From Prosthecobacter sp. (GTDB lineage: Bacteria; Verrucomicrobiota; Verrucomicrobiia; Verrucomicrobiales; Verrucomicrobiaceae), in NCBI GenBank assembly GCA_017853885.1, contig JAFMIR010000016.1, positions 8,990-72,989 of the forward strand: a stretch of DNA of 64,000 nt, read 5' to 3'. A program made the position numbers and the translations under genes. This document shows positions 22,663-33,876 of the stretch, piece by piece (the stretch's first letter is position 1; every line of letters starts with the position of its first letter). The notes beneath the pieces are model-generated. The model made no database searches and was not told the origin of the DNA. It worked only from the letters and a program-made list of their open reading frames with translations.

Positions 22663-25236
22663 TCACTTCCCCGCCACCTTCGGCGCGGGCTCCAGCACGT
22701 CCAGCTCGTGGATGGACCAGAAGGTGCCTTTGGTGCTGCCGGTGTCGGTGATGCGGATGAATCTGGCTTTGGCGGGCTTGGGGAAGAGGAAGTCGGTGGT
22801 GCTGACTTTTTCGCTCTGGCCTTCGAGGATGGGTTTGTCCCAGGTTTGGCCGTCTGGGGAGAGTTCGATCTTCCAGCCGCGTGGCCAGTCGCCGCGGGAG
22901 GTGGCGGTGTCGAGGGTGAGACCGGCGATGTTGGTGGGCTGTGGCAGTTCGATCTGCACCCACATGCCGGGCGTTTGCGAGGTGTGCGTGTCCCAGCGGG
23001 TCTCGGGATTGCCGTCGATGGCGCGGGCGAGATCCTTGGCGTTGTGGCTGGCGGTGAGCTTCCACGCGCTGCGATTTTCGAGCGGGAGTTGCGGGCCGGT
23101 GCGCTTGAGTTCTTCGATGGTCCACGGCGTGGTGCGCGTGGCGAGTTCTTTGCGCAGTTTGGCGACCTCATCTTTCGTGATGAAGCGGCCGTTGTTGCCA
23201 AAGCTCTTGCGCACGTAGCTGGCGATGTCGGCGAGCCATTCATCGGGATTGTTCGCCATCGGGATCATCTGCGCCTGATACGTTTTGCCGTTCACCGGGC
23301 CGCTGAGGCCGTGGAGGAGCACGCGGAGGACTTGATCGCCCTGCAAGACGGTCTTCGAGGCGGCGAGCGCCGGGGCGAGGGTCATGCCAGGAGCGAGTCC
23401 ATCAATGGCGGTGCCTTTGCCATCGAGGCCGTGGCAGGTGAAGCACAGCTCCTGATAAATGGCCTGGCCGCGACGCATCTGATCTTTCTGCGCATTGCTG
23501 AACTCACGCGGGAAGCTGATCTGGCCGTTGAGCATCTGCCCGGCCATTTCTTTGACGCCTTTCGAGGGCGTGCTGAGCGCGGTGAGGTTGATGAGCTTCG
23601 CGTGGTCCTTCCACTTCATCTGCTTTGCGGTGAGCAGGGCCTGGATGACGACGGTGGGATCGCTGTCCTTCGTCAAAGCGGTGATGTCAGCCACGAGCGT
23701 CTCATCGGCGAGCGATTCGCTGGCGCGGATGGCGGCACGGCGTAGCACGGGCGATGCGTCCTTCAAAGCGGCACGCACGAGATCGCTGGTGAGCGCGCCG
23801 AGACCTTCGAGCGTCCACAGCGCGTGGATGCGGGCGAGGTCGCTGCCGTTTTTCTGAAGCATCGCGATGAGCGCGGGCGCGACGTTTTTGTCCTGCTTCA
23901 AAACGAGCAGCTTCTGCGCGGTGTCGCGATGCCAGCCATTCGGATGCGCGAGCGCCTCGACGAGTTGCGCGGGCGTGGCGTCGAGCCATTTCGGCGCGGG
24001 CACGGGCTTCGTCTTGTCATGCACGAGACGCCACACACGGCCGCGATTGATGATCTTGTCCATGCTGTGCTGCAGGATCACTTTGCGCAGGTAGCTGCCT
24101 TCTTTGGTCCAATTTCCCTCCTGGATGATGCCGCGATACATGTCGCAGATGAAGAGCGTGCCATCCGGCGCGGTTTTCATATCGACGGGGCGGAAGCACG
24201 CGTCCGTGCTGCGCAGGAACTCGCTCTGCGGATGCGGATTGTGCAGAATGGTGATGCCGTCCTTCACCTCGATGCTCGTGCGGCGCACCAGACGGCCCAC
24301 GGGCTCGCCAAAGAAGAGATTGCCGCGCAGCTCGGCGGGCAATTGGTCGCCTCGGAAGATCTCGCCACCGCAGGTCGCGGTGAAATGATTCAGCGTGTCG
24401 TCCTCGCGCGACTTGCCGGGGCCGCCCTGGTAATCACGCAGACCCATCGCCGGCCACACGACCTCAAACCCGGGCTCGAACTGCCCGCGGGTGAGCGATT
24501 GACCATAGAGGATGTGGTTTTGGAAATTGAGCGGGCCTTTCTCGCCGCCCGCGTTCACCACCCAGAACTTGCCCTCATCATCCTGCGTCGCGCCCCACTG
24601 GCCGCCATTGCCGGGAATGTCTTGCTTGATGAGCTGGCCGTCCTTCCAGCGCAGGCGGTAGTTGTTCACCGCGGTGTAGATCCAGTTGTCCAGCGCCCAC
24701 GTCATGCCGCTGGGCTGATGCTCCAGATTGCCGCCACGTGGTCCGCCTTGATACACCGGCTTCTTTTCATCGCTCACGCCGTCGCCGTTCGTGTCTTTAT
24801 AAAGGTAGATGTCGTTCGTGTCCGTCTCGCCGATCAGCACGCCATCGGCCAGCGGCAGCAGCAGGCGCGGCAGTTTCAACTTGTCCGCAAAGACGCGATG
24901 CATGTCGTATTTGCCATCGCCCTTGCTCGACCAATGCACCGACACGCGGCTCGTGCTCACCAGTTCGTCCGTGCCGTCGATGTCGCGCATGTAGCTGCTC
25001 ATCTCCGCGACGTAGAGCCTGCCGTTGCCATCGAAGGCTAGGCAAACCGGCTCCGTGATGTCCGGCTCGCTCAGAATCAGCTCCATGCGATACCCCGGCG
25101 GCAATTGAAAGGTCATTTGCTCCTCCGCCGCCGTGAGCGCCTTCACCGGCGGCTTCGGCGGGAAGTCGGTGGCATCATCGGCCAGCAGGCGACCGAGCGA
25201 GAGGGCAGTGACGAAAGCAAGGGGGCGGAGTTTCAT
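22663..25236 (-). CDS. PVC-type heme-binding protein: beta-propeller dehydrogenase-like domain, HEAT repeats, cytochrome c and F5/8-type C (discoidin) domain
   Basis: Signal peptide MKLRPLAF at 25236; EPVCLAFDGNGRLYVAEM, FRPVD...PDGTLFICDMYR, HEAT-like repeats, CFTCH heme site and a C-terminal W.QIEL...WSIHEL domain. The longer ORF extension is antisense to the AraC gene. Confidence 0.88.
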   Translation of the reverse strand: MKLRPLAFVTALSLGRLLADDATDFPPKPPVKALTAAEEQMTFQLPPGYRMELILSEPDITEPVCLAFDGNGRLYVAEMSSYMRDIDGTDELVSTSRVSVHWSSKGDGKYDMHRVFADKLKLPRLLLPLADGVLIGETDTNDIYLYKDTNGDGVSDEKKPVYQGGPRGGNLEHQPSGMTWALDNWIYTAVNNYRLRWKDGQLIKQDIPGNGGQWGATQDDEGKFWVVNAGGEKGPLNFQNHILYGQSLTRGQFEPGFEVVWPAMGLRDYQGGPGKSREDDTLNHFTATCGGEIFRGDQLPAELRGNLFFGEPVGRLVRRTSIEVKDGITILHNPHPQSEFLRSTDACFRPVDMKTAPDGTLFICDMYRGIIQEGNWTKEGSYLRKVILQHSMDKIINRGRVWRLVHDKTKPVPAPKWLDATPAQLVEALAHPNGWHRDTAQKLLVLKQDKNVAPALIAMLQKNGSDLARIHALWTLEGLGALTSDLVRAALKDASPVLRRAAIRASESLADETLVADITALTKDSDPTVVIQALLTAKQMKWKDHAKLINLTALSTPSKGVKEMAGQMLNGQISFPREFSNAQKDQMRRGQAIYQELCFTCHGLDGKGTAIDGLAPGMTLAPALAASKTVLQGDQVLRVLLHGLSGPVNGKTYQAQMIPMANNPDEWLADIASYVRKSFGNNGRFITKDEVAKLRKELATRTTPWTIEELKRTGPQLPLENRSAWKLTASHNAKDLARAIDGNPETRWDTHTSQTPGMWVQIELPQPTNIAGLTLDTATSRGDWPRGWKIELSPDGQTWDKPILEGQSEKVSTTDFLFPKPAKARFIRITDTGSTKGTFWSIHELDVLEPAPKVAGK

Positions 25237-25289
25237 GACGGTGCGAAAAAAGATCAACATCAATACTTTCGCCGCCCACGGCTCCTTTG

Positions 25290-25317
25290 GTGACAGACCG
25301 CCAATCTTTGTTAAAAT
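25290..25317 (+). promoter_or_regulatory. Putative sigma70 promoter (GTGACA -35; TGnTAAAAT extended -10) for a leaderless AraC mRNA
   Basis: GTGACA at 25290-25295, 16-nt spacer, TG at 25309-25310, TAAAAT at 25312-25317, and the ATG 6 nt later at 25324. Confidence 0.6.
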
Positions 25318-25323
25318 CCGGCC

Positions 25324-26064
25324 ATGCCGTTGCCGCGCCTCCAAGCTGACTTTTTCGCCCGGATCGCCGATCCGCAGGGCGTGCGGGCGATTTTCGAGCA
25401 CATGCCCGGCGTGTTCTTTTTCATGAAGGACGACCAGGGGCGGCACATCGCGGCGAACAGCGCCACCTTTGAGCGCTTCGGCATCAAGAGCGAGCGCGAG
25501 CTCGTCGGTGCGATGGATGAGAAATTCTTCCCGCCCGATGTCGCGAAGGCGTATCGCGACGACGACCAGAAAGTCATCCGCAGCGGCAAACCGCTCATCA
25601 ACCGCCTCGAAGTCTGGTATGACGAGCAGCGGAACCTGAGCTGGTTCCTCTGCACGAAGCTGCCCGTGCGCGACAAACGCGGCAAGGTCATCGGCGTCAT
25701 GGGCATCACCCGCCGCGATGAGGACCGCATGCGCCAGCACGACGTGCGCGAGGTCACCGTCGCCGCGCAATACGCCCGCGAGCACTGCCACGAAGTCGTC
25801 ACCACCGCCGAGCTCGCCCGCGCCGCCGGCGTCTCCGAGCGCCACCTGCATCGCAAGCTCCGCATCGCCCTCGACATCAGCCCCTACGAGCTCCTGCTCC
25901 GCTCCCGCATCCAATCTGCTGCCGAAGCCCTAGCCAAAACCACGCTCCCGATCATCCAGATCGCCCTCGACCACGCCTTCTGCGATCAAAGCGCCTTCAC
26001 CCAGCAATTCCGCAAACGCACCGGCATGACCCCGAAGGAATTCAGGCGGCGGCATCAAGGGTGA
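25324..26064 (+). CDS. PAS-domain AraC family transcriptional regulator
   Basis: N-terminal PAS (FFMKDDQGRHIAAN...TKLPVRD...IGVMGI) and C-terminal AraC HTH (IALDHAFCDQSAFTQQFRKRTGMTP). Confidence 0.92.
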   Translation: MPLPRLQADFFARIADPQGVRAIFEHMPGVFFFMKDDQGRHIAANSATFERFGIKSERELVGAMDEKFFPPDVAKAYRDDDQKVIRSGKPLINRLEVWYDEQRNLSWFLCTKLPVRDKRGKVIGVMGITRRDEDRMRQHDVREVTVAAQYAREHCHEVVTTAELARAAGVSERHLHRKLRIALDISPYELLLRSRIQSAAEALAKTTLPIIQIALDHAFCDQSAFTQQFRKRTGMTPKEFRRRHQG

Positions 26065-26866
26065 GCTCGGCCATCAACGCCGGATCATCAAACTCCAGCG
26101 CCGCGAAAGCCTGATCGAGATGCGCGGGCGTGCGCCCGCCGACGAGGACGGTGTCGATGCCCGACTGATGCAAGGCCCACGCCAGCGCGAGATGCGCCTG
26201 TGAGTGCCCGCTGCGCTTCGCGATGGTTTCGAGCCTTGCGAGGCGCTGATACGCCGCCTCATGAAAATAGACGTTCTGATGCCCCGGAACGATCTCGAAG
26301 CGTGAACTGGCTTGAACGCCGTTTTGATGCTTCCCAGTCAAAAAACCGGCTCCGAGCGGACTGTAGGTCACGATGACGATGTTGTTCGCGGCGCAGTAAT
26401 CACGCAAAGCCTCGGTGACATCGCTGACGGCGAGGTTGTGATTGTTTTGGATCACGCGGAAACGCGGGCCGAGGGCGCGGAGTTGATCGAGCGTGACGTT
26501 GCTGGCTCCGAATCGCTTCACGGGCAGTTTTTCGAGAGCGGCACCGGCTTGCAGCGCCGTGTCGTGCCATTGATGCAGGTAAAGCAGGTCGATGTGCTCG
26601 ACACCGAGTCGTTTCAGGCTCGGTGTGATGTCGATGCGGTCATATGGCGGCAGGATTTTCGTGGCGATGGTGATGCCTTCAGGCTTTCGCGAAGCCAGCC
26701 ACTTCCCGAGGATCGTTTCCGAAGCTCCGCCGCCGTATGCGGCGGCGGTGTCGAAGTGCGTGACGCCACGTGCAAAGGCGTGATCGAGCAGCGCAAAGGA
26801 CGCGGCTTCGTCGATCTCACGACCGAAGGTCACGCAGCCGAGACCGATGCGGGGCAATGGGTTCAT
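26042..26866 (-). CDS. Aldo/keto reductase
   Basis: GLGCVTFG, FDTAAAYGGG.SE, ATK, DLLYLHQW and YSPLGAGFLTGK motifs. Confidence 0.92.
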   Translation of the reverse strand: MNPLPRIGLGCVTFGREIDEAASFALLDHAFARGVTHFDTAAAYGGGASETILGKWLASRKPEGITIATKILPPYDRIDITPSLKRLGVEHIDLLYLHQWHDTALQAGAALEKLPVKRFGASNVTLDQLRALGPRFRVIQNNHNLAVSDVTEALRDYCAANNIVIVTYSPLGAGFLTGKHQNGVQASSRFEIVPGHQNVYFHEAAYQRLARLETIAKRSGHSQAHLALAWALHQSGIDTVLVGGRTPAHLDQAFAALEFDDPALMAELTLDAAA

Positions 26867-26903
26867 GGAGTCTTTTGAGACGCATGAGGACTGCATGCGC
26901 CGA

Positions 26904-28211
26904 TCACTTGAGCAGCTTCTCGATGGTGGCCTTCATCACTTTCTCCGACTCAGGCGTGGCGTAGGCCTGCGAGGGCTCGTAGCCGCCTTCGATGAAGGAG
27001 TGTTCGAGAGGAATGTAGCCGGTGACGCCATCGCCATAGCTGGCGGTGCAGACGAAAGCGCCGGGGCGCTGTTGTTGCGCAAAGAGTTGATATTCGACGA
27101 AGCTCTCACCGGGCAGGTGCACGAGGCATACGTTATCGCCGAGGTGCAGGCTGGTGAAGGGAATCGGCTCGCGATGCCGGATAAACCCGAGTCGCAATGC
27201 GGCGGTGATGCGCGTGGAGGGTCGCGTTTCGGTGTTTTGGAGCACTTTGACCATGCGCTCCTCGGGGAACTCAGGATCGGGCTGCAAAACGACCGGCGCA
27301 TGTTTCCAAGCGAGCTTGGTGAGTGGGACACGCTTGGCGTTTTGTTCCGAGGAGACCATGGCGGCGTGGATGCGCTCAGCAAGCAAGGGGCGCATGGGCG
27401 GCGTGCCGTCGTTGTATTTGCCCGCACCGATGTTGCCGCCGCAACCGGTAAAGTAGATGTGCGGCACACCATCCTCCTTCGTGCGCTTTTCACGTGCGAT
27501 GCCAACGAAGTCGTGGCTGACAATTCCGTCGCCGTAGTAGCTCATCGGGTGCGTGGCGTAGTAGTGCAGCGCGGCGAGCTTCTTTTCGCCGTTCCAAAAG
27601 CTCACCGTCTTCAAAAACGGATCAATGAGGCCTTCCGGCAGCGCACGCAGTTCAGGGTCCTTGCTGCCACTGCTGCGCATTTTGCCGACTTTGCCGTTGA
27701 TGACTTGCACGCGTCGGTTTCCGGCCACTTCGAGCACTTTGGACTCACCAGTCGAGAGGTGCGTCACGGGCTGTGGAGTCTTCAAGGCGGCTTGGATGGT
27801 TTTCGCGACGCCTTGGAGGGCTTTTTCGGTTGCGGTGGCATCGATGATACCGATTTCAGGGAGGAGTTTCTGCGCCGCGTTGTCCACGAGTGGTGCGTTG
27901 TGCTGATGCAGTGAGTGCAAGGCAACACGCTCGGGTGTGGTAGCGGCGGCTTCAGCCAAAACCTCCCGCCAATGAATGTGATCCGCGCCGCGGATCTCAC
28001 AGAAGTCGATGGCGCAGAGCACGACGGGCTTTTCATCGCTCAAGAGCACGACTCCGAGTGCCAGCAAGGGCTCGCTGACACCGACGGCCGGTTTGACAAG
28101 CCCGCCGCACAGGGGTGCGCCGATGGGTGGCGTGACATCGGCACGAAAAGGCGCGATTTGGATCGCGAGGGCGGAGACGGAGGTGAGAAGGAAGAGCAGC
28201 AGCGCTTTCAT
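26904..28211 (-). CDS. Neutral/alkaline ceramidase-like amidohydrolase (PVC hypothetical family), secreted
   Basis: ADVTPP, HSLHQHNAP, YATHPMS, FTGCGGNI, LPGESFVEY and GYIP...GGYE pattern typical of this fold. Confidence 0.65.
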   Translation of the reverse strand: MKALLLFLLTSVSALAIQIAPFRADVTPPIGAPLCGGLVKPAVGVSEPLLALGVVLLSDEKPVVLCAIDFCEIRGADHIHWREVLAEAAATTPERVALHSLHQHNAPLVDNAAQKLLPEIGIIDATATEKALQGVAKTIQAALKTPQPVTHLSTGESKVLEVAGNRRVQVINGKVGKMRSSGSKDPELRALPEGLIDPFLKTVSFWNGEKKLAALHYYATHPMSYYGDGIVSHDFVGIAREKRTKEDGVPHIYFTGCGGNIGAGKYNDGTPPMRPLLAERIHAAMVSSEQNAKRVPLTKLAWKHAPVVLQPDPEFPEERMVKVLQNTETRPSTRITAALRLGFIRHREPIPFTSLHLGDNVCLVHLPGESFVEYQLFAQQQRPGAFVCTASYGDGVTGYIPLEHSFIEGGYEPSQAYATPESEKVMKATIEKLLK

Positions 28212-29950
28212 TTCATCAATACGCTGCGAATCACCGGAACGAGCAATTCAGCGACGAGTTCGTGGCCGAGATCGCCGGGGTGCATGCCATCGAGGAGCAT
28301 GCTGCTGATGAAGGTCTTCTTTTTCGCGGCGAAGTCGGGATAGGCGGCGTGGACATCGATGAGGGGCACGTTCAGCTCTTTGGCGAGCGCGCGTAGGGCG
28401 TCGTTGTAGGCGAGGAGGGTGGGCGATTCAAATCCGGCCTCGGCATCCGGTTTGTAGGGGGGCTTGCCGTAGAGTTCGCGGGTCTTTGAGTGCCAGCGGA
28501 GCGGGTTGGTGGTCATGAGGATGACCTTGGCCCCGGCTTTTTGCGTCGCGGCGATCATGCGGCGGTAGTTGGTGATGAAAGCTTCTTTGCTCACGCGGGG
28601 GTCAGTGGCTGGGGGATTCTTCCAAACGTCGATGGCGCTGTCGTTGATGCCGAACTGCATGACGACGAGGCGCGGCTTGTAGGCGAGCACATCGGTTTGC
28701 AGGCGTTTGGCGGCCTGCGTGGTGGTATTGCTGGGGACTCCGGCGTTGTAAACGCTGAGGCTGGAGCCGATGCTCTGGAGCATCGTGTTCACGCGGTCGG
28801 CATACACTTTCACGCTGCCGCGAGGCGCGGTGGTGCTGTCGCCAAACATGAAGATGCCGCCGGGCTTGGGCACGGACTTCGGTGGCGGCACGAAGACGGG
28901 GATTTCGCCTGCAGCGAGGTCGGCGGTGTTCACTTTCATGCGCAGACCGCCTTGCATGGTGGTGATCCAGAGCTCGCCGGGCTTGCTTTCGTATAGATAA
29001 GGGTAGGAGACGCGACCTGCGGGTGCGTAGTTTGCGGCGACGATGACGGGTTTGCTCCACGAGGCCGTTTCATCGCTGGAAAAGGCAAGCGAGAGTTCGG
29101 CGCGGCTGCTGCTGTTGCTTGGGCTGTGGCGCGGTGGTGCGTTCCAAAGCAGCGCGATGCGGCCATCGGCTAGGCGGGCCATTTGCGGGCAACAGGTGAC
29201 GGATTGAATCGTGGTTTGCTTGAGGCCGGTCCATTTGAGGCCGTCTTTGGAAGTCGCTTCCCAAAGGAAGCCGGACTCGGTGCGCAGCAGGAGGTAGAGC
29301 GAGCCATCGGCAAGCTCGATGACGCTGCCTTCGATGCTGCCGGCGTGGTCGTGCACGCCGATGCCGTAATCGAGCACATCGCCGCGTTGCCATGATTTGC
29401 CGAGATCATCGGAAACCCACATCACAGTGGCGTGACGCCACTGCGGGATGATTTCCTGGCCGACAAGTACGAGGCGGCCGCTTTTCATCTGGATGAGCGA
29501 GTGAATGCAACCACACCACGGATCGCTGAGCTTCACGGGCGCTTCCCACGTCTTGCCATCATCGGTGCTGCGGCAGGTGTAGGTGGGCAGGATGAAGTCG
29601 GTCCACTTCGCGCTCGACTCGCCCCAATGCCAGCCCTTGGGTGCCCGGCGCTCCGCGCCGTTCATCCATGCGGAGATGATGATGCCCTCTTTGGTGCGGA
29701 GTAGAGCGCGTTCGTTGCTGACGGAGAACTTCGCCGGATCGGCAAATAGTGGCGAACTCGTCCATGTGTGGCCGTCATCGACGCTGCGTAGAGCGTTTTT
29801 GTTGTCGATGCATAGCACGCCACCTTCTGCGGTGGTCACAAAGGGGCCTTGATGCGTGTGCGGGAGAGTGGATGCCTTCGGATGCAAAACGGGTGAATCG
29901 GCGGCGTAGGCGCTGCTGATGATCCCGAAGAAGACGAGGAGTGCTTTCAT
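28208..29950 (-). CDS. BNR/Asp-box sialidase-fold protein fused to an SGNH/GDSL esterase
   Basis: Asp-boxes SVDDGHTW, STDDGKTW, SDDLGKSW and SSDETASW; SGNH blocks FGDSTT, GVPSNT, FGINDS and DGMHP. Confidence 0.88.
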   Translation of the reverse strand: MKALLVFFGIISSAYAADSPVLHPKASTLPHTHQGPFVTTAEGGVLCIDNKNALRSVDDGHTWTSSPLFADPAKFSVSNERALLRTKEGIIISAWMNGAERRAPKGWHWGESSAKWTDFILPTYTCRSTDDGKTWEAPVKLSDPWCGCIHSLIQMKSGRLVLVGQEIIPQWRHATVMWVSDDLGKSWQRGDVLDYGIGVHDHAGSIEGSVIELADGSLYLLLRTESGFLWEATSKDGLKWTGLKQTTIQSVTCCPQMARLADGRIALLWNAPPRHSPSNSSSRAELSLAFSSDETASWSKPVIVAANYAPAGRVSYPYLYESKPGELWITTMQGGLRMKVNTADLAAGEIPVFVPPPKSVPKPGGIFMFGDSTTAPRGSVKVYADRVNTMLQSIGSSLSVYNAGVPSNTTTQAAKRLQTDVLAYKPRLVVMQFGINDSAIDVWKNPPATDPRVSKEAFITNYRRMIAATQKAGAKVILMTTNPLRWHSKTRELYGKPPYKPDAEAGFESPTLLAYNDALRALAKELNVPLIDVHAAYPDFAAKKKTFISSMLLDGMHPGDLGHELVAELLVPVIRSVLMK

Positions 29951-29973
29951 GCAGCAACTATATCACCGTCCGC

Positions 29974-30789
29974 TTAGTAGGTTTTGCCATTGAGGCTTTT
30001 GTTGTTCGTGGCGGCAGCTCCGAGCAATTCATCAAAGTCGGCGGCACATTGCGTAAAGTGCGCGTGAAGCGCACCGAACTCGCTGCCATGCACCACAAAG
30101 CGGGCTCCAAGGTCGATGATGGCTTTTGCATCCGAGACAGTGCCCACCGGGCGGCCCCATGCCTTGCCATGTTTCTGACAGGCAGCGGCAATTTGGCGCT
30201 GTACATTCAGCATGACAGGATCACCCACGGCGGGCGAACAGCCGAGACGCAGGGACATATCACCAGGTCCGAGAAAGAGAACCTCCACGCCAGGAGCGGC
30301 GGCGATGGCTTCGACGTTTTCCAATGCCTCGGGTGTTTCGATTTGCACCACGAGGAAACTCTCGCGGTTCGCTTGATCGGTGTAGTCATTCGGCTTCCCA
30401 ATCCAGTAGTCCGCATCCCGTCCACCACCGCAGAAACCCCGATCTCCAATCGGCGGAAACTTGATGGCATTGACAAGCGTGCGGGCCTCCTCCGCGTTGG
30501 CAACATGCGGGATCATCAAACCCGCCGCGCCGTCCTCAAGCAGCCGACAGAGACTGGTTTTTTCTTTGGTCACTGCCCGCCAAACGCAGTCGATGTCCGC
30601 AGCATGATGCCGGCCGATCATCGTTTCCACCTCACGTGGATCCCAAACGCGATGCTCAGCATCAACCCAGACGCCATCATAGTGAAAGTGGGCGGCGATG
30701 GTAGGAAGAAAGGCGATGGGGGATCCGGTGGCACAAATGCGTGCTACTTGGCCAGAGCGAAGCTTAGCGAGGACTTTGGAGCGTCTCAT
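29974..30789 (-). CDS. HpcH/HpaI family class II (pyruvate) aldolase
   Basis: WVDAEH, GLMIPHV, FPPIGDRG, VVQIET and LFLGPGDMS motifs. Confidence 0.9.
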   Translation of the reverse strand: MRRSKVLAKLRSGQVARICATGSPIAFLPTIAAHFHYDGVWVDAEHRVWDPREVETMIGRHHAADIDCVWRAVTKEKTSLCRLLEDGAAGLMIPHVANAEEARTLVNAIKFPPIGDRGFCGGGRDADYWIGKPNDYTDQANRESFLVVQIETPEALENVEAIAAAPGVEVLFLGPGDMSLRLGCSPAVGDPVMLNVQRQIAAACQKHGKAWGRPVGTVSDAKAIIDLGARFVVHGSEFGALHAHFTQCAADFDELLGAAATNNKSLNGKTY

Positions 30790-30835
30790 GAAAGATGAAG
30801 GACATTGGAGGAGAGCACTTCAGCTAAGGAAAGGG

Positions 30836-31933
30836 TTATTTCTGTAGCAACCCATCGAGTGGGATGCGGCGAATGCGCAGGCGATTGAGGGCTCCAACCT
30901 TGCTATCCCCTGCGCAGTAGGCAATGAGCAGAGCGTTGTCGATGAAATGAATGGCGGTGTAATGATAAACGCCGTCGGGATCGCCTTCGATGAGTTGGCG
31001 AATGGGCCACGTCTCTCCGCCATCGTTTGAAAGAGCGGCGATCAAGGGATTGCGTTTCTTCGGAGGGAACGGGAAGCGACCAGAGTGGTCGTTGTAGATG
31101 GCGAGGAGATCCCCGCTTCCGGGCAGGCGCTTGATGCTGGCGGGGCCGTTCGGAGATTTCAGCTCGGTGGGCTTAGGCGGTGTGAAGGTCCTGCCCGCAT
31201 CCGTGGAGCGGAAGCCGTACTGCGCCCCCTGATCGGTGCGGCACCACGAGAAGAGCGAGCCATCGGCGAGCTCGACGACACCGGGCTCCTGCAAACCACT
31301 GCTGCTCCGCACGGGCATGGCCCACCACGTGGATGATTCGCTCCAAGTCTCACCCTCATCATCGGAACAGAGCCAGGTGGCGATGGCACGGGCATCCCAC
31401 GATTGGCTGGTGTGCGGATCCGTGCCGCGTGAGCGATGAAAAGCGAGCGGAACGATGAGGCGGCCTTTTGCGGTCTGGATGACGCGGTCGTTGTTTAAGA
31501 CGAAGTAGCCGGGCGCTCGCTGAATGAGCTTCGGTTCGGTCCAAGTCTCGCCATCATCGGTGGACATGCGCATGTGCGGACGGCAGTCAATCCAACTGTT
31601 TTTGATGCAGTAAAACATCGCCAGTTTGCCACTTGCCAGGCGTAGCAACGAGACGCTCATAACATTGTTGCCCGCGGTGTTTTCCAAGACGGTGACGGGC
31701 GTGCTCCAGGTGCGTCCTTGATCATCGGAATGGATCTTCACGAGGCGTGCGGGGCTCTCATCGCCATGGCCGCCATAGAATTGGGAGTAGATGAAGAGGA
31801 TACGGCCGGACTTCAGCGTAGCGAAGGAACCTTCAGAGTTGCGTGGGTGCTCCTTCGAGGGCTCGACATTGAGCGTGACGAGACTCTCCGCAGGCAAGGC
31901 TAGGCTTAAAAGAAGGAAGAGCAGTGTTTTCAT
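30836..31933 (-). CDS. Sialidase-family (BNR repeat) protein, secreted
   Basis: Five Asp-boxes (SDDQGRTW, STDDGETW, SDDEGETW, STDAGRTF, SNDGGETW), plus RNSEG, QEPGVVEL and YHY. Confidence 0.88.
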   Translation of the reverse strand: MKTLLFLLLSLALPAESLVTLNVEPSKEHPRNSEGSFATLKSGRILFIYSQFYGGHGDESPARLVKIHSDDQGRTWSTPVTVLENTAGNNVMSVSLLRLASGKLAMFYCIKNSWIDCRPHMRMSTDDGETWTEPKLIQRAPGYFVLNNDRVIQTAKGRLIVPLAFHRSRGTDPHTSQSWDARAIATWLCSDDEGETWSESSTWWAMPVRSSSGLQEPGVVELADGSLFSWCRTDQGAQYGFRSTDAGRTFTPPKPTELKSPNGPASIKRLPGSGDLLAIYNDHSGRFPFPPKKRNPLIAALSNDGGETWPIRQLIEGDPDGVYHYTAIHFIDNALLIAYCAGDSKVGALNRLRIRRIPLDGLLQK

Positions 31934-31948
31934 GATTTCGATACGCAT

Positions 31949-32719
31949 TCACCAGATGGTCCATCCACCATCAACGGCGAGATTTTGGCCCGTGATGAAG
32001 CTGGCGGCATCGCTAAGCAAAAAAACCACGGCACCAGCGATCTCGGATGACTGACCTACACGACCCAACGGCACTTTTTGGGCCAAGCGGTCGATGAAGG
32101 CGGGTTGGGTGGCTTGGACGGCAGGATTGGGGAAGGGTCCTGGGCTGATGGCATTGCAGCGCACACCGCGCGGACCGTAGTGCACGGCGAGGTAACGTGC
32201 GAGCTGTTGGATGCCTGCTTTGCCGACGCCGTATTCGACAGGATTGGGATTCATCGGCGCCTCATACAGGCGCGGGTCTGGTGAGACGGAACCATACATG
32301 CTAGAAAAAAGCACGATGCTGCCGCTTCCGCGGCTTGCCATGGCATTTCCAATCGCACGGGCGAGTGTGAAAGTGGCGGTGAGGTTTCCATGACTTGCCT
32401 GATCAAAATCGGCGGCGCTGAGGTCATCGAATGTCTTTGCCGTGGAGGAGTAAGTCATCACGACTAGACCATGCGGCACTCCTCGTGCCGCGGTTTGGTT
32501 GGAGACGAATGCCTCGAGCGCCAGAGTGTCTGAGGCGTCTAGACTCACGGTTGAAGTTAGCGGGCCAAAACCGGCCTCCGAAGCTTTTGCTCCCAGATCG
32601 GCACACAAGACACGTGCTTGCATAAGTTCGAGCGCGTTTACCACCGAAGAGCCGAGATAGCCCGCGCCACCGATGATCCAGATGTCGCGGTTTTCGAGAG
32701 AGAAGAGTGAATCGCTCAT
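31949..32719 (-). CDS. SDR family oxidoreductase
   Basis: GGAGYLG Rossmann motif, SSMYG, YGVGK (YxxxK), NAISPG and ITGQNLAVDGG. Confidence 0.92.
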   Translation of the reverse strand: MSDSLFSLENRDIWIIGGAGYLGSSVVNALELMQARVLCADLGAKASEAGFGPLTSTVSLDASDTLALEAFVSNQTAARGVPHGLVVMTYSSTAKTFDDLSAADFDQASHGNLTATFTLARAIGNAMASRGSGSIVLFSSMYGSVSPDPRLYEAPMNPNPVEYGVGKAGIQQLARYLAVHYGPRGVRCNAISPGPFPNPAVQATQPAFIDRLAQKVPLGRVGQSSEIAGAVVFLLSDAASFITGQNLAVDGGWTIW

Positions 32720-32787
32720 GCGTTGGATTCTGTTTGCGATGAGGCTGGAGACGAGCCTTTACTCGTGGTCCCTCTCGGGCACCACTC

Positions 32788-33876
32788 ATGAAAACACGCG
32801 TCTCCACCGCACTCAAGCTGCCACAAAGGCAGTCTCTTGTGACACAAACGGTCGAAAGCCTACGCGAAGGTTTGGAGAAGGGACATTGGGAAGGTCATCT
32901 GCCGGGGGAGCGCGAATTGTGCGAGGCGTTGCAAGTGAGCCGACGCACGCTCAGGGCTGCCTTGGAGGATTTGCAACGCCAAGGATGGCTGGAGGTGAGC
33001 GGTCGACAGAGGCGCAAAATCCAGCAGGCACCCAAGGTACCACGCCATGCAAAGACCACCAAAATCATCGGCATCTTGAACTCCGCCTCGTTTCTGAACA
33101 TACCGCCACACATTGCCTATGTGATGGATACGCTGCGGAGCAAACTGACCGCAGCTGGCTATGCAGTGAGGGTGTATGCACAACCCGGATGCTACACAGC
33201 CAGTCCGGCCCGTGCTTTGGAAAAGTTTTTTTCTGAGCATGCAGCTACGGCTTGGGTGGTGCTGAGTGCGGAGCTTCCCATGCAGCGCTGGCTGGCGGCC
33301 AAGGGCCTGCCCTGCTTTTTGATGGGATCACCAGGTAAAGGCATCTCCCTGCCCTCGCTTGACATGGATTTTCACGCGGCATGCCATCACGCGGGCACGA
33401 TGCTCTGGCGCAAGGGGCACCGGCGCATCGCATTTGTGGTGCCAAAAGGCCAGTATGGAGGTGACATCGCCAGCGAAGAGGGACTGCGTTCCGCATTGTC
33501 GAGCCTGCCGGGCACAAAACTGCGCGTGTTGCGTCATGACACTACCGTGCCAAACCTTTGCCGCATCCTCGACGATGCCCTGCGCGGACCCGATGCTCCC
33601 AGCGCTTTCTTTGTGGCCCGCCCATCGTTCGTGATCACGACGATGATGCACCTGATGCGCCGTGGAAAGCGCATCCCGCAAGATGTGGCCGTCCTCTCCC
33701 GTGACAACGACCCGACCCTCGACGCCACTACGCCCACGATCTGCCGATATGGCGTCGAGCCGCGGCAGCTTGCCTCACGCGTGGTTTTGGCCGTGCGACA
33801 ACTGGCGGAGAACGGATCCGCAGCCTCTGGAAGCGTGAAGCTTATGCCCAGTTACATGCCAGGAGAGACGGTATGA
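32788..33876 (+). CDS. GntR-HTH / LacI-type sugar-binding-domain transcriptional regulator
   Basis: LPGERELCEALQVSRRTLRAAL wHTH, then a periplasmic-binding-like effector domain (RIPQDVAVL). Confidence 0.9.
   Translation: MKTRVSTALKLPQRQSLVTQTVESLREGLEKGHWEGHLPGERELCEALQVSRRTLRAALEDLQRQGWLEVSGRQRRKIQQAPKVPRHAKTTKIIGILNSASFLNIPPHIAYVMDTLRSKLTAAGYAVRVYAQPGCYTASPARALEKFFSEHAATAWVVLSAELPMQRWLAAKGLPCFLMGSPGKGISLPSLDMDFHAACHHAGTMLWRKGHRRIAFVVPKGQYGGDIASEEGLRSALSSLPGTKLRVLRHDTTVPNLCRILDDALRGPDAPSAFFVARPSFVITTMMHLMRRGKRIPQDVAVLSRDNDPTLDATTPTICRYGVEPRQLASRVVLAVRQLAENGSAASGSVKLMPSYMPGETV

Follow-up and report, generated by a model that had tools for sequence, protein, structure and literature searches.

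What does an operon degrade that joins exported sialidase-fold proteins to a cytoplasmic pyruvate aldolase? PVC bacteria carry sialidase-fold genes in very large numbers and, to our knowledge, almost none of these genes has a known substrate. Sugars of the legionaminic and pseudaminic type are abundant in the EPS, capsules and flagella of environmental bacteria, and we know of no catabolic route for these bacterial nonulosonic acids (legionaminic, pseudaminic), nor for Kdo or Dha. One study reports that many different microbes have nonulosonic-type sugars in their extracellular matrix (PMC8053191). The operon analysed here, carried on a 64,000-nucleotide stretch of a contig from a freshwater Prosthecobacter sp. 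of the Verrucomicrobiaceae (hereafter the window), probably degrades a sialic-acid-like sugar acid by an undescribed route; a literature search found no published description of such an operon. It provides a compact, regulated and phylogenetically recurrent candidate set of glycosidase, class II aldolase, long-loop SDR and AKR, which could reveal what large unannotated enzyme families do and perhaps supply the enzymes for orphan activities such as Kdo aldolase. Since cultured Prosthecobacter strains carry the operon, the question is directly testable.

Operon structure and the sialidase-fold propeller

Examination of the window confirmed the arrangement given in a preliminary description of the locus, namely six tightly packed minus-strand genes and a divergent GntR/PBP regulator, all seven open reading frames lying where it had placed them. 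From left to right the genes code for an aldo/keto reductase (AKR), a ceramidase-fold protein (CerL), a BNR_2-SGNH fusion, an aldolase (HpcH), a sialidase-family propeller (BNR370) and an SDR oxidoreductase. AKR and CerL are 7 bp apart, CerL and the fusion overlap by 4 bp, 23 bp separate the fusion from HpcH and 46 bp HpcH from BNR370, the SDR stop codon abuts the BNR370 start (0 bp), and 68 bp lie between the SDR and the regulator. CerL, the fusion and BNR370 have signal peptides; AKR, HpcH and the SDR are cytoplasmic. Every family assignment of the preliminary description holds (by Pfam, and for CerL by fold), and no nan gene or transporter was detected among the domains of the seven genes with Pfam and NCBIfam, as it had claimed.

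BNR370 (30836..31948, minus strand; 370 aa, predicted exported) encodes a six-bladed propeller matching Pfam BNR_2 (123 bits), with five Asp boxes (SxDxGxTW/F) in its sequence. Its AF2 model (pLDDT 95, pTM 0.91) matches GH33 sialidases in Foldseek with TM 0.73-0.75 and E 1e-19 to 1e-17; the top 50 matches are all sialidase-fold proteins, almost all of them named sialidases, and identity to characterised sialidases is only 17-23%. Across 63 diverse homologs of 36-57% identity, R299 and Y330 are invariant, and conservation of R36, D63, E221 and R237 is 90% or more. The NanB residues E541 and R557 correspond to E221 and R237 in the alignment, D63 falls within one residue of D270, and R237 and R299 align to Arg residues conserved in the GH181 enzyme Amuc_1547 (profile E-value 5e-23). 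By sequence and model, BNR370 is thus assigned a GH33-type fold with all catalytic residues in place (Arg triad, Asp and the Glu/Tyr pair), and we propose an exo-ulosonidase activity for it. The six-bladed propeller, the five Asp boxes and this catalytic set are common to GH33 enzymes such as those of Micromonospora viridifaciens (1EUR) and Cutibacterium acnes (7LBU), whereas E39, N152, N153, R155, R163 and Q220 are additional family-invariant residues beyond GH33 and GH181. Conservation of the Arg triad and of the Tyr/Glu pair, together with export of the protein, led us to reject a reading of BNR370 as a lactonase.

The BNR370 family comprises about 570 clusters at 50% identity (E<=1e-30), none of them characterised; BNR370 itself is single-copy, with 74-90% identity across genera. 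Among ten multidomain representatives of the family no fusion to HpcH was found; one carries an SGNH fusion and another PA14 and CHB_HEX modules.

Accessory exported proteins

The fusion (28208..29950, minus strand; 580 aa, predicted exported, with a signal peptide ending in ...SSAYA/AD) combines an N-terminal BNR_2 domain (100 bits) with a C-terminal Lipase_GDSL_2 domain (94 bits). The propeller matches the BNR370 family with 99.7% probability in hhalign and retains E207, R223, R283 and the Tyr, and the same alignment shows that the first Arg of the triad is absent, the position aligning to His31 (Phe in the family consensus). The sialidase constellation, on which the preliminary description made its reading depend, is complete in BNR370 and lacks its first Arg in the fusion, whose propeller site is predicted to be non-canonical; GH181 offers a precedent for activity with an incomplete Arg triad. 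SGNH blocks I, III and V (GDS, GxND, DxxH) are represented by the invariant GDS372, N436 and D554-x-x-H557, which identify the C-terminal domain, by its motifs, as an SGNH esterase.

CerL (26904..28211, minus strand; 435 aa, predicted exported, signal peptide MKALLLFLLTSVSALA) scores 24.8 bits with Pfam Ceramidase_alk, under the cut-off of 32.1. No sequence-level match was obtained in the PDB, and a profile built from the CerL alignment likewise retrieved no PDB sequence. The only significant Foldseek matches of its AF2 model (pLDDT 77.6) are neutral ceramidases, 2zws from Pseudomonas and human 4wgk (E 2e-21 to 8e-19, TMq 0.66-0.68). CerL would thus have the catalytic-domain fold of these enzymes in common, but differs from them by an identity of 14%, a missing C-terminal domain and the score under the Pfam gathering threshold. 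Residues H102, H104, H221, E369, E373 and Y411 are invariant in 23 homologs; H102, H104, H221 and E369 are candidate Zn ligands, for which no alignment to the neutral-ceramidase ligands was obtained. We regard CerL as a putative Zn amidase (N-deacylase).

Both proteins had been described as operon members, which is true of the window. Among 80 related loci, CerL is present in 16 and the fusion in nine; the two are accessory.

Cytoplasmic enzymes and regulator

HpcH (29974..30789, minus strand; 271 aa) encodes a class II (HpcH/HpaI-type) metal-dependent pyruvate aldolase, with 84.4 bits for Pfam HpcH_HpaI (cut-off 25). In PDB alignments to 7et8 and 1dxe (GarL and HpaI residues) it retains the class II active-site set as H46, R71, E150 and D177, the Arg being catalytic and the Glu and Asp metal-binding, which bears out the earlier view of the protein as an aldolase. 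It belongs to the same fold family as HpcH/HpaI, GarL and YfaU (RhmA), with E 1e-26 to 1e-24, but stays under every NCBIfam equivalog cut-off (HpaI 122/369, GarL 120/393, RhmA 97/441 bits) and is linked to sialidase-fold genes instead of aromatic or aldarate pathways. As no sugar-acid dehydratase occurs in any conserved neighbourhood of the cluster, the keto-deoxy acid is probably delivered ready-made.

The SDR (31949..32719, minus strand; 256 aa) matches Pfam adh_short_C2 (145 bits) and contains the motif SSMYG..SPDPRLY..PVEYGVGKAG, as noted previously. It falls under the cut-off of every NCBIfam model, the best being PRK09186 (133 bits against 255), which we take to be the PtmA model. N-acylmannosamine 1-dehydrogenase (4cr6) is among its PDB matches, and the best is 6UH2 (E 1.3e-32), to which the extended Ser-to-Tyr loop aligns gap-free. 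ElaC, an SDR acting as legionaminic-acid C8 reductase, was solved with 6UH2 as search model and has an elongated loop (V150-P165) ahead of Y168/K172 (PMC13656337). The label "PtmA-like" given earlier to the SDR finds indirect backing in this match and none at the level of the NCBIfam cut-offs. An elongated loop between the catalytic Ser and Tyr-x3-Lys is common to the SDR and ElaC/PtmA-type enzymes, 6UH2 being the closest solved relative of both; the likeness is drawn via 6UH2, and ElaC/PtmA-type SDRs are biosynthetic with CMP-linked sugar substrates.

AKR (26042..26896, minus strand; 284 aa, without signal peptide) matches Pfam Aldo_ket_red (164 bits) and no NCBIfam equivalog. The regulator (32788..33876, plus strand; 362 aa) joins a GntR-type HTH (Pfam GntR, 41 bits) to a LacI-type sugar-binding domain (Peripla_BP_3, 66 bits); 42 of the 80 related loci show it in divergent orientation to the operon, and a paralog with 30% identity governs another BNR_2 cluster, which lies on contig C49 of the same genome. 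Within the divergent intergenic region (32720..32787, 68 bp), presumably promoter and operator, there is an imperfect inverted repeat, GACGAG-N6-CTCGTG. The region shows no consensus sigma-70 site, and scanning for promoters and terminators gave no informative result.

Conservation and genome context

In 121 genomes of the family, BNR370 and HpcH co-occur in 63, BNR370 stands without HpcH in 17 and HpcH without BNR370 in 10, and 31 have neither; in 26 of 93 high-quality family genomes BNR370 was not found. Of the 80 BNR370 loci, 53 have HpcH no more than 10 kb away and 23 have it directly alongside, an adjacency kept across at least six different local gene orders, and AKR orthologs are near BNR370 in 17 of the 80. 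The linkage of propeller, aldolase and SDR, whose conservation had been proposed as a check, is thus kept in related genomes, and the arrangement is more than chance because it recurs in many of them. These genomes, from lakes and activated sludge, are close kin, and part of the conserved gene order stems from common descent, not from selection. Esterases of the BD-FAE and SGNH types are recurrent neighbours in relatives, some of which also carry Amidohydro_2 lactonase-like genes and a second SDR. An enolase adjoining the cluster in relatives, missing from the window operon, is only 48% identical to the single enolase match detected in this genome and was for that reason rejected as the housekeeping ortholog.

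On three unrelated metagenome contigs (L121, L169 and L175), BNR370-family genes are flanked by a paralogous set of HpcH (34-45% identity), long-loop SDR (32-34% identity to the window SDR) and AKR. L121 further carries a PIG-L N-deacetylase and a DegT aminotransferase, and in L169 an AKR of 54% identity directly follows the BNR370 homolog and a type-B SDR. In other lineages, most BNR370 homologs with 55-70% identity have no aldolase beside them and instead adjoin sulfatases, SASA esterases and beta-helix proteins.

About 15 sialidase-fold genes are present in the 4.3-Mb Prosthecobacter genome. A BNR_2 gene stands beside a DHDPS gene on contig C6, and another beside RraA-like, AKR and GntR/PBP regulator genes on C49; the DHDPS and RraA-like proteins are putative members of other pyruvate-lyase families. 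Five of the six DHDPS-family matches in this 94%-complete genome, all except the weakest (C6:88281-88868), were scanned with NCBIfam; all five are under the NanA cut-offs and one is DapA. The C6 pair was rejected as a canonical nan locus, its lyase being under these cut-offs, and the C6 propeller has no sialidase match in the PDB at E<=1e-5. A link between an HpcH paralog on C54 and a BNR_2 gene about 8 kb away was rejected, with unrelated genes lying between them.

Proposed pathway and alternative readings

Folds, conserved catalytic residues, export signals and a conserved, recurrent gene linkage are the observations on which we build; what we infer from them is the substrate, the sequence in which the steps occur and the part that each accessory enzyme plays. 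The interpretation we favour, and consider slightly on the probable side of even, is a substrate-inducible catabolic unit for a sialic-acid-like 3-deoxy-2-ulosonic sugar in glycosidic linkage. Outside the cytoplasm, a GH33-type retaining exo-glycosidase, BNR370, would free the keto-acid sugar. The fusion would strip O-acyl groups with its SGNH domain and bind or trim the same glycan with its non-canonical propeller, and CerL would take off an N-acyl group. After uptake by a system presumably encoded outside the operon, the long-loop SDR would oxidise or reduce a side-chain position of the sugar acid, HpcH, in the place of NanA in nan clusters, would cleave C3-C4 to pyruvate and an aldehyde, and AKR would reduce this aldehyde; the GntR/PBP regulator would sense the sugar. 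The most likely substrate is an N-acylated nonulosonic acid, for example a bacterial Leg/Pse-type sugar or sialic acid, with Kdo, Kdn and Dha less favoured. Several observations count against a catabolic unit of this kind: transporter and kinase are absent from the operon, the aldolase neighbour is mostly missing beside the 55-70%-identical propellers of other lineages, synteny is partly inherited among close kin, the fusion propeller lacks the first Arg while CerL and the fusion occur in a minority of loci, and both SDR and aldolase are under all curated equivalog cut-offs. In a bolder and unlikely version, the module would be the first pathway for the breakdown of bacterial 5,7-diamino nonulosonic acids, legionaminic or pseudaminic in type. 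It would comprise an exported legionaminidase- or pseudaminidase-like GH33 relative, O-/N-deacylases and an ElaC-like side-chain oxidoreductase, after which the class II aldolase would yield pyruvate and a diamino-trideoxyhexose for deacetylase, aminotransferase and reductase steps.

The same genes could serve to scavenge LPS and its Kdo. The SGNH domain would then O-deacylate and CerL N-deacylate lipid A, BNR370 would be a Kdo hydrolase and HpcH the orphan Kdo aldolase (EC 4.1.2.23) producing pyruvate and D-arabinose, the latter to be converted by the SDR or AKR. The export of a ceramidase-fold (lipid amide) hydrolase and acyl-esterases beside a ulosonidase is in keeping with this, as are the recurrent BD-FAE and SGNH esterases and the polar N152, N153, R155 and R163 of BNR370, predicted to lie at the site of the usual hydrophobic N-acetyl pocket; the LPS-detoxifying enzyme AOAH belongs to the SGNH enzymes, and Francisella and Helicobacter have Kdo hydrolases that are sialidase-like. 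Kdo scavenging nevertheless appears rather improbable, with CerL in so few of the loci, a sugar aminotransferase and a PIG-L deacetylase in L121 that would be superfluous for Kdo, an SDR resembling a nonulosonic-acid enzyme, and D-arabinose isomerase and kinase genes absent nearby. We give a small chance to the ordinary use of Neu5Ac or Kdn sialoglycans, in which HpcH would be a non-orthologous NanA replacement and SDR or AKR would handle ManNAc or mannose. The complete GH33 site of BNR370, the SGNH and SASA partners of sialate-esterase type, the 4cr6 match of the SDR and the outcome of the NanA scan all suit it, but nanK, nanE, nagA and nagB-type genes are absent from every conserved neighbourhood, BNR370 is distant from characterised sialidases, the relatives come from lakes and activated sludge, and the DegT and PIG-L context of L121 points elsewhere.

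Resemblance of HpcH to the keto-deoxy-rhamnonate aldolase YfaU, the lactonase-like genes and second SDR of some relatives, and the loss of the BNR370 link in distant lineages would also agree with there being no single pathway: exported BNR proteins acting on or merely binding non-ulosonate glycans, and HpcH, SDR and AKR forming a rhamnose/fucose-type non-phosphorylative deoxy-sugar route under a common regulator. This too is rather improbable, given the family-wide Arg triad and Tyr/Glu pair, the lack of a sugar-acid dehydratase in all neighbourhoods, the independent assembly of the module from paralogous parts in L121 and L169, and the three putative pyruvate-lyase families that adjoin BNR_2 genes in one genome. 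Finally, the very high conservation of the single-copy BNR370 could reflect a role in remodelling or recycling glycan on the surface of the cell itself (LPS core, capsule or EPS) and not in nutrient acquisition, which seems very improbable for a gene not found in over a quarter of the high-quality family genomes, placed under a sugar-sensing repressor-type regulator and surrounded by catabolic enzymes.

Comparison with nan clusters

The catabolic unit for a sialic-acid-like sugar that we favour has its closest parallel in nan clusters (NanH, NanS, NanA, NanR/RpiR), with which the operon has in common an exported enzyme of the exo-sialidase family, an esterase for O-acyl groups, an aldolase that releases pyruvate in the cytoplasm and a dedicated sugar-sensing regulator. 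The aldolase is of class II (HpcH) in the operon, whereas that of nan clusters is of class I (DHDPS/NanA). Unlike nan clusters, the operon has neither NanK, NanE, NagA and NagB nor a NanT, SiaPQM or SusCD transporter. It adds to their repertoire a long-loop SDR, an AKR and a putative ceramidase-fold amidase, and its substrate is probably not Neu5Ac.

Organization of the operon and its regulator

The window's assembly belongs to the Verrucomicrobiaceae (4.27 Mb in 108 contigs, 94% complete), and relatives of the window's genes carry names such as Prosthecobacter and Brevifollis. Six co-directional ORFs form a minus-strand operon at 26042-32719, with gaps of 7, -4, 23, 46 and 0 bp in coordinate order. 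In transcription order these genes encode a long-loop oxidoreductase (SDR; 31949-32719; Pfam adh_short_C2, 145 bits), the 370-aa propeller BNR370 (30836-31948; BNR_2, 123 bits), a class II aldolase (HpcH; 29974-30789; HpcH_HpaI, 84 bits), a 580-aa propeller-esterase fusion (28208-29950; BNR_2, 100 bits, and SGNH esterase, 94 bits), the 435-aa protein CerL (26904-28211), which has a weak Ceramidase_alk match of 24.8 bits, below cut-off, and finally an aldo/keto reductase (AKR; 164 bits). A divergent plus-strand gene (32788-33876), beginning 68 bp past the operon, encodes a regulator in which Pfam recognizes two parts, a GntR HTH and a LacI-type binding domain. Pfam and NCBIfam scans of these seven genes detected neither nan genes nor transporter domains, and the layout given in the preliminary description was borne out in every particular. 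Immediately downstream of the AKR gene lies a gene for a 1083-aa PVC-type haem-binding protein (DUF7133, HEAT, cytochrome c and F5/8 type C domains; 22663-25914, minus strand), whose ortholog holds the same position in 4 of 80 related loci.

The exported hydrolases

BNR370 begins with a Sec-type signal peptide, and its sequence contains five Asp boxes. Its AlphaFold model, which drew on 63 homologs (36-57% identity), reached a pLDDT of 95 and a pTM of 0.91, and the best structural matches were all GH33 sialidases (TM 0.73-0.75). Across the 63-homolog alignment R299 and Y330 are invariant, and R36, D63, E221 and R237 are conserved at 90% or more. The catalytic Glu541 and Arg557 of pneumococcal NanB align with E221 and R237, and D63 falls within one residue of NanB Asp270. 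The spacings R-27-D, E-16-R and R-31-Y agree with those of characterized sialidases. With the Arg triad, the Asp and the Glu/Tyr pair thus conserved, BNR370 possesses the sialidase constellation whose absence the preliminary description had named as evidence against a sialic-acid-like pathway. The same alignment contains further conserved residues (E39, N152, N153, R155, R163 and Q220), for which we know of no counterpart in Neu5Ac-specific enzymes. The family comprises 566 uncharacterized clusters at 50% identity (E<=1e-30), and many members seem to have no signal peptide. Many representatives from other lineages, among them P0245, P0248, P0251, P0259 and P0266, start within a few residues of the propeller; judged from this start and the apparent lack of a signal peptide, they would appear to be cytoplasmic versions of the enzyme.

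The fusion protein is likewise exported and its SGNH catalytic set is intact. Its propeller aligns with the BNR370 family at 99.7% probability and keeps the Glu, two Arg and the Tyr of the sialidase site. In place of the first Arg of the triad it has His31, a position where the family consensus shows Phe. Amuc_1547 (GH181) of Akkermansia, which the BNR370 family profile matches best, is an active sialidase in which one Arg and the Tyr are reportedly missing; by this analogy, the incomplete triad of the fusion would be no proof of inactivity.

CerL, the third exported protein, has neutral ceramidases as the only matches to its model (pLDDT 78; E 2e-21 to 8e-19, TMq 0.66-0.68), but lacks their C-terminal domain. 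The HQH motif, H221 and E369 are invariant in its homologs (n=23), as expected for a putative Zn amidase.

The aldolase and the SDR

The HpcH aldolase has kept the catalytic residues of GarL and HpaI (His, Arg, Glu and Asp) and scores well under the curated NCBIfam cut-offs for HpaI, GarL and RhmA. In the SDR a long insertion separates the catalytic Ser from the Tyr-x3-Lys; its best solved relative is 6UH2 (E 1.3e-32), to which the long loop aligns gap-free. 6UH2 was also the search model used to solve the structure of ElaC, an SDR whose proposed role is to reduce the keto group at C8 of CMP-legionaminic acid, and the 2026 paper on ElaC emphasized its elongated loop ahead of Tyr168/Lys172 (PMC13656337). 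The earlier remark that the SDR is PtmA-like therefore receives indirect support from this link and from the long loop, although the protein scores under the cut-off of every NCBIfam model.

Linkage in related genomes and distant contigs

Genes within 10 kb of a BNR370 ortholog were surveyed in 80 loci of related species genomes, many on short contigs. HpcH was present in 45 of these loci, the regulator in 42, SDR in 41, AKR in 17, CerL or a 42%-identical paralog in 16 and the fusion in 9. In an evenly drawn sample of 121 family genomes, 63 had both BNR370 and HpcH, 17 BNR370 alone, 10 HpcH alone and 31 neither. HpcH was directly adjacent to 23 of the 80 BNR370 orthologs in this sample, within 5 kb of another 26 and within 10 kb of 4 more; the remaining ones were mostly on different, short contigs. 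Since the sampled genomes are kin, part of this linkage is inherited. The pair is kept across at least six differing local gene orders, with variable companions (stand-alone SGNH esterase, RraA-like protein, MBL hydrolase, APH-type kinase, enolase paralog, PhyH, GHL10, BD-FAE and Amidohydro_2). Of 93 high-quality family genomes, 26 yielded no BNR370, which is therefore an accessory gene, as expected for a catabolic function. Cultured bacteria with the cluster include P. fluviatilis KACC 12649 (L040) and P. vanneervenii (L005).

In 18 related genomes (e.g. L027:13176-17227 and L008) the aldolase gene is succeeded by those for an APH-family kinase and the enolase paralog, frequently accompanied by an MBL hydrolase. 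The enolase paralog is 48% identical to the only enolase match detected in the window's genome, and the trio is absent from the window's operon.

On metagenome contigs, BNR370 homologs of 55-70% identity mostly have no aldolase neighbour and lie in glycan-degrading contexts, next to sulfatases, a SASA sialate-esterase-family protein, Amidohydro_3 and beta-helix proteins. Some distant loci rebuild the propeller-aldolase module from paralogous parts. L121 (736-11466 of contig Ga0153916_10002246) is one co-directional string of GHL10, a BNR370-family gene (67% identity), AKR, a GFO-like gene, HpcH (34%), long-loop SDR (32%), Gfo/Idh/MocA, a DegT aminotransferase, an unknown gene and a PIG-L N-deacetylase, and seems to be a more complete form of the pathway, for an amino sugar acid. 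In L169 the propeller is directly followed by a paralogous (type-B) SDR and a 54%-identical AKR, and in L175 HpcH, AKR and SDR lie near the propeller. The linkage thus holds in Verrucomicrobiaceae and a few unrelated contigs, and is not universal for the propeller family.

Further putative lyase and propeller loci in the same genome

A type-B pair also occurs in the window's genome, on the 10.5-kb contig C92 (3445-6237; locus L096), where three consecutive genes encode a porin-like beta-barrel protein, a long-loop SDR and an HpcH aldolase, the last two of type B; no propeller is on this contig. The SDR is 52-61% and the aldolase 45% identical to those flanking BNR370 homologs in L121, L169 and L175. 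On contig C6 (1875-6248; L093) the genes for an AraC regulator and a DHDPS-family class I aldolase are divergently arranged. The aldolase scores under the NanA and DapA cut-offs and is followed by two BNR_2 propellers, one of them with a cystatin-like N-terminus and the genome's best BNR_2 score (291 bits). No NanA-grade lyase was found among the five of six DHDPS-family matches in the genome that were scanned against NCBIfam, all scoring under the NanA cut-offs. Contig C49 (38193-50658, minus strand; L095 2193-14658) carries a sulfatase, BNR_2, an FGE-sulfatase-BNR_2 fusion, a GntR/PBP regulator 30% identical to that of the window, an RraA-like protein, BNR_2, LamG-BNR_2, AKR and a sulfatase, giving four BNR_2 genes (one LamG-fused, one FGE-sulfatase-fused), two sulfatases and one AKR. 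Three putative pyruvate-lyase superfamilies adjoin sialidase-fold genes in one genome, two being unquestioned aldolase families and the third RraA-like. The best case for propeller and aldolase having a common target molecule comes from this pairing combined with the independent rebuilding of the module in L121 and L169.

Proposed pathway and substrate

An Arg triad with a Tyr/Glu pair is the signature of enzymes cleaving glycosides of 2-keto-3-deoxy acids, which class II pyruvate aldolases split between C3 and C4. As no sugar-acid dehydratase occurs in any conserved neighbourhood examined, the simplest source of the finished keto-deoxy acid would be the glycosidase. Export of the three hydrolases and a cytoplasmic location of SDR, aldolase and AKR likewise fit a pathway of release followed by cleavage. 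Beyond the family assignments, we infer the following course. The sugar would be freed outside the cytoplasm, with O- and N-deacylation as accessory steps, and taken up by a system not encoded in the operon; a redox step on the sugar acid would then precede retro-aldol cleavage to pyruvate and an aldehyde, which would finally be reduced.

Several features favour as substrate a nonulosonic acid that is N-acylated and possibly diamino: the putative amidase of the operon, the PIG-L deacetylase and sugar aminotransferase of L121, the ElaC-type SDR, and the fact that the relatives live in lakes and activated sludge. According to PMC8053191, microbial nonulosonic acids are widespread in such habitats. 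The substrate may instead be Kdo, through scavenging of LPS, or Kdn, Dha or plain Neu5Ac.

Comparison with nan clusters

Full-text literature searches found no report tying an HpcH-type aldolase to sialidases or to the catabolism of ulosonates. Like nan clusters, the operon combines a sialidase, an esterase, a lyase and a regulator. In contrast to them, its lyase comes from another superfamily, their downstream amino-sugar genes and transporter are absent, and it adds an SDR, an AKR and a ceramidase-fold protein.
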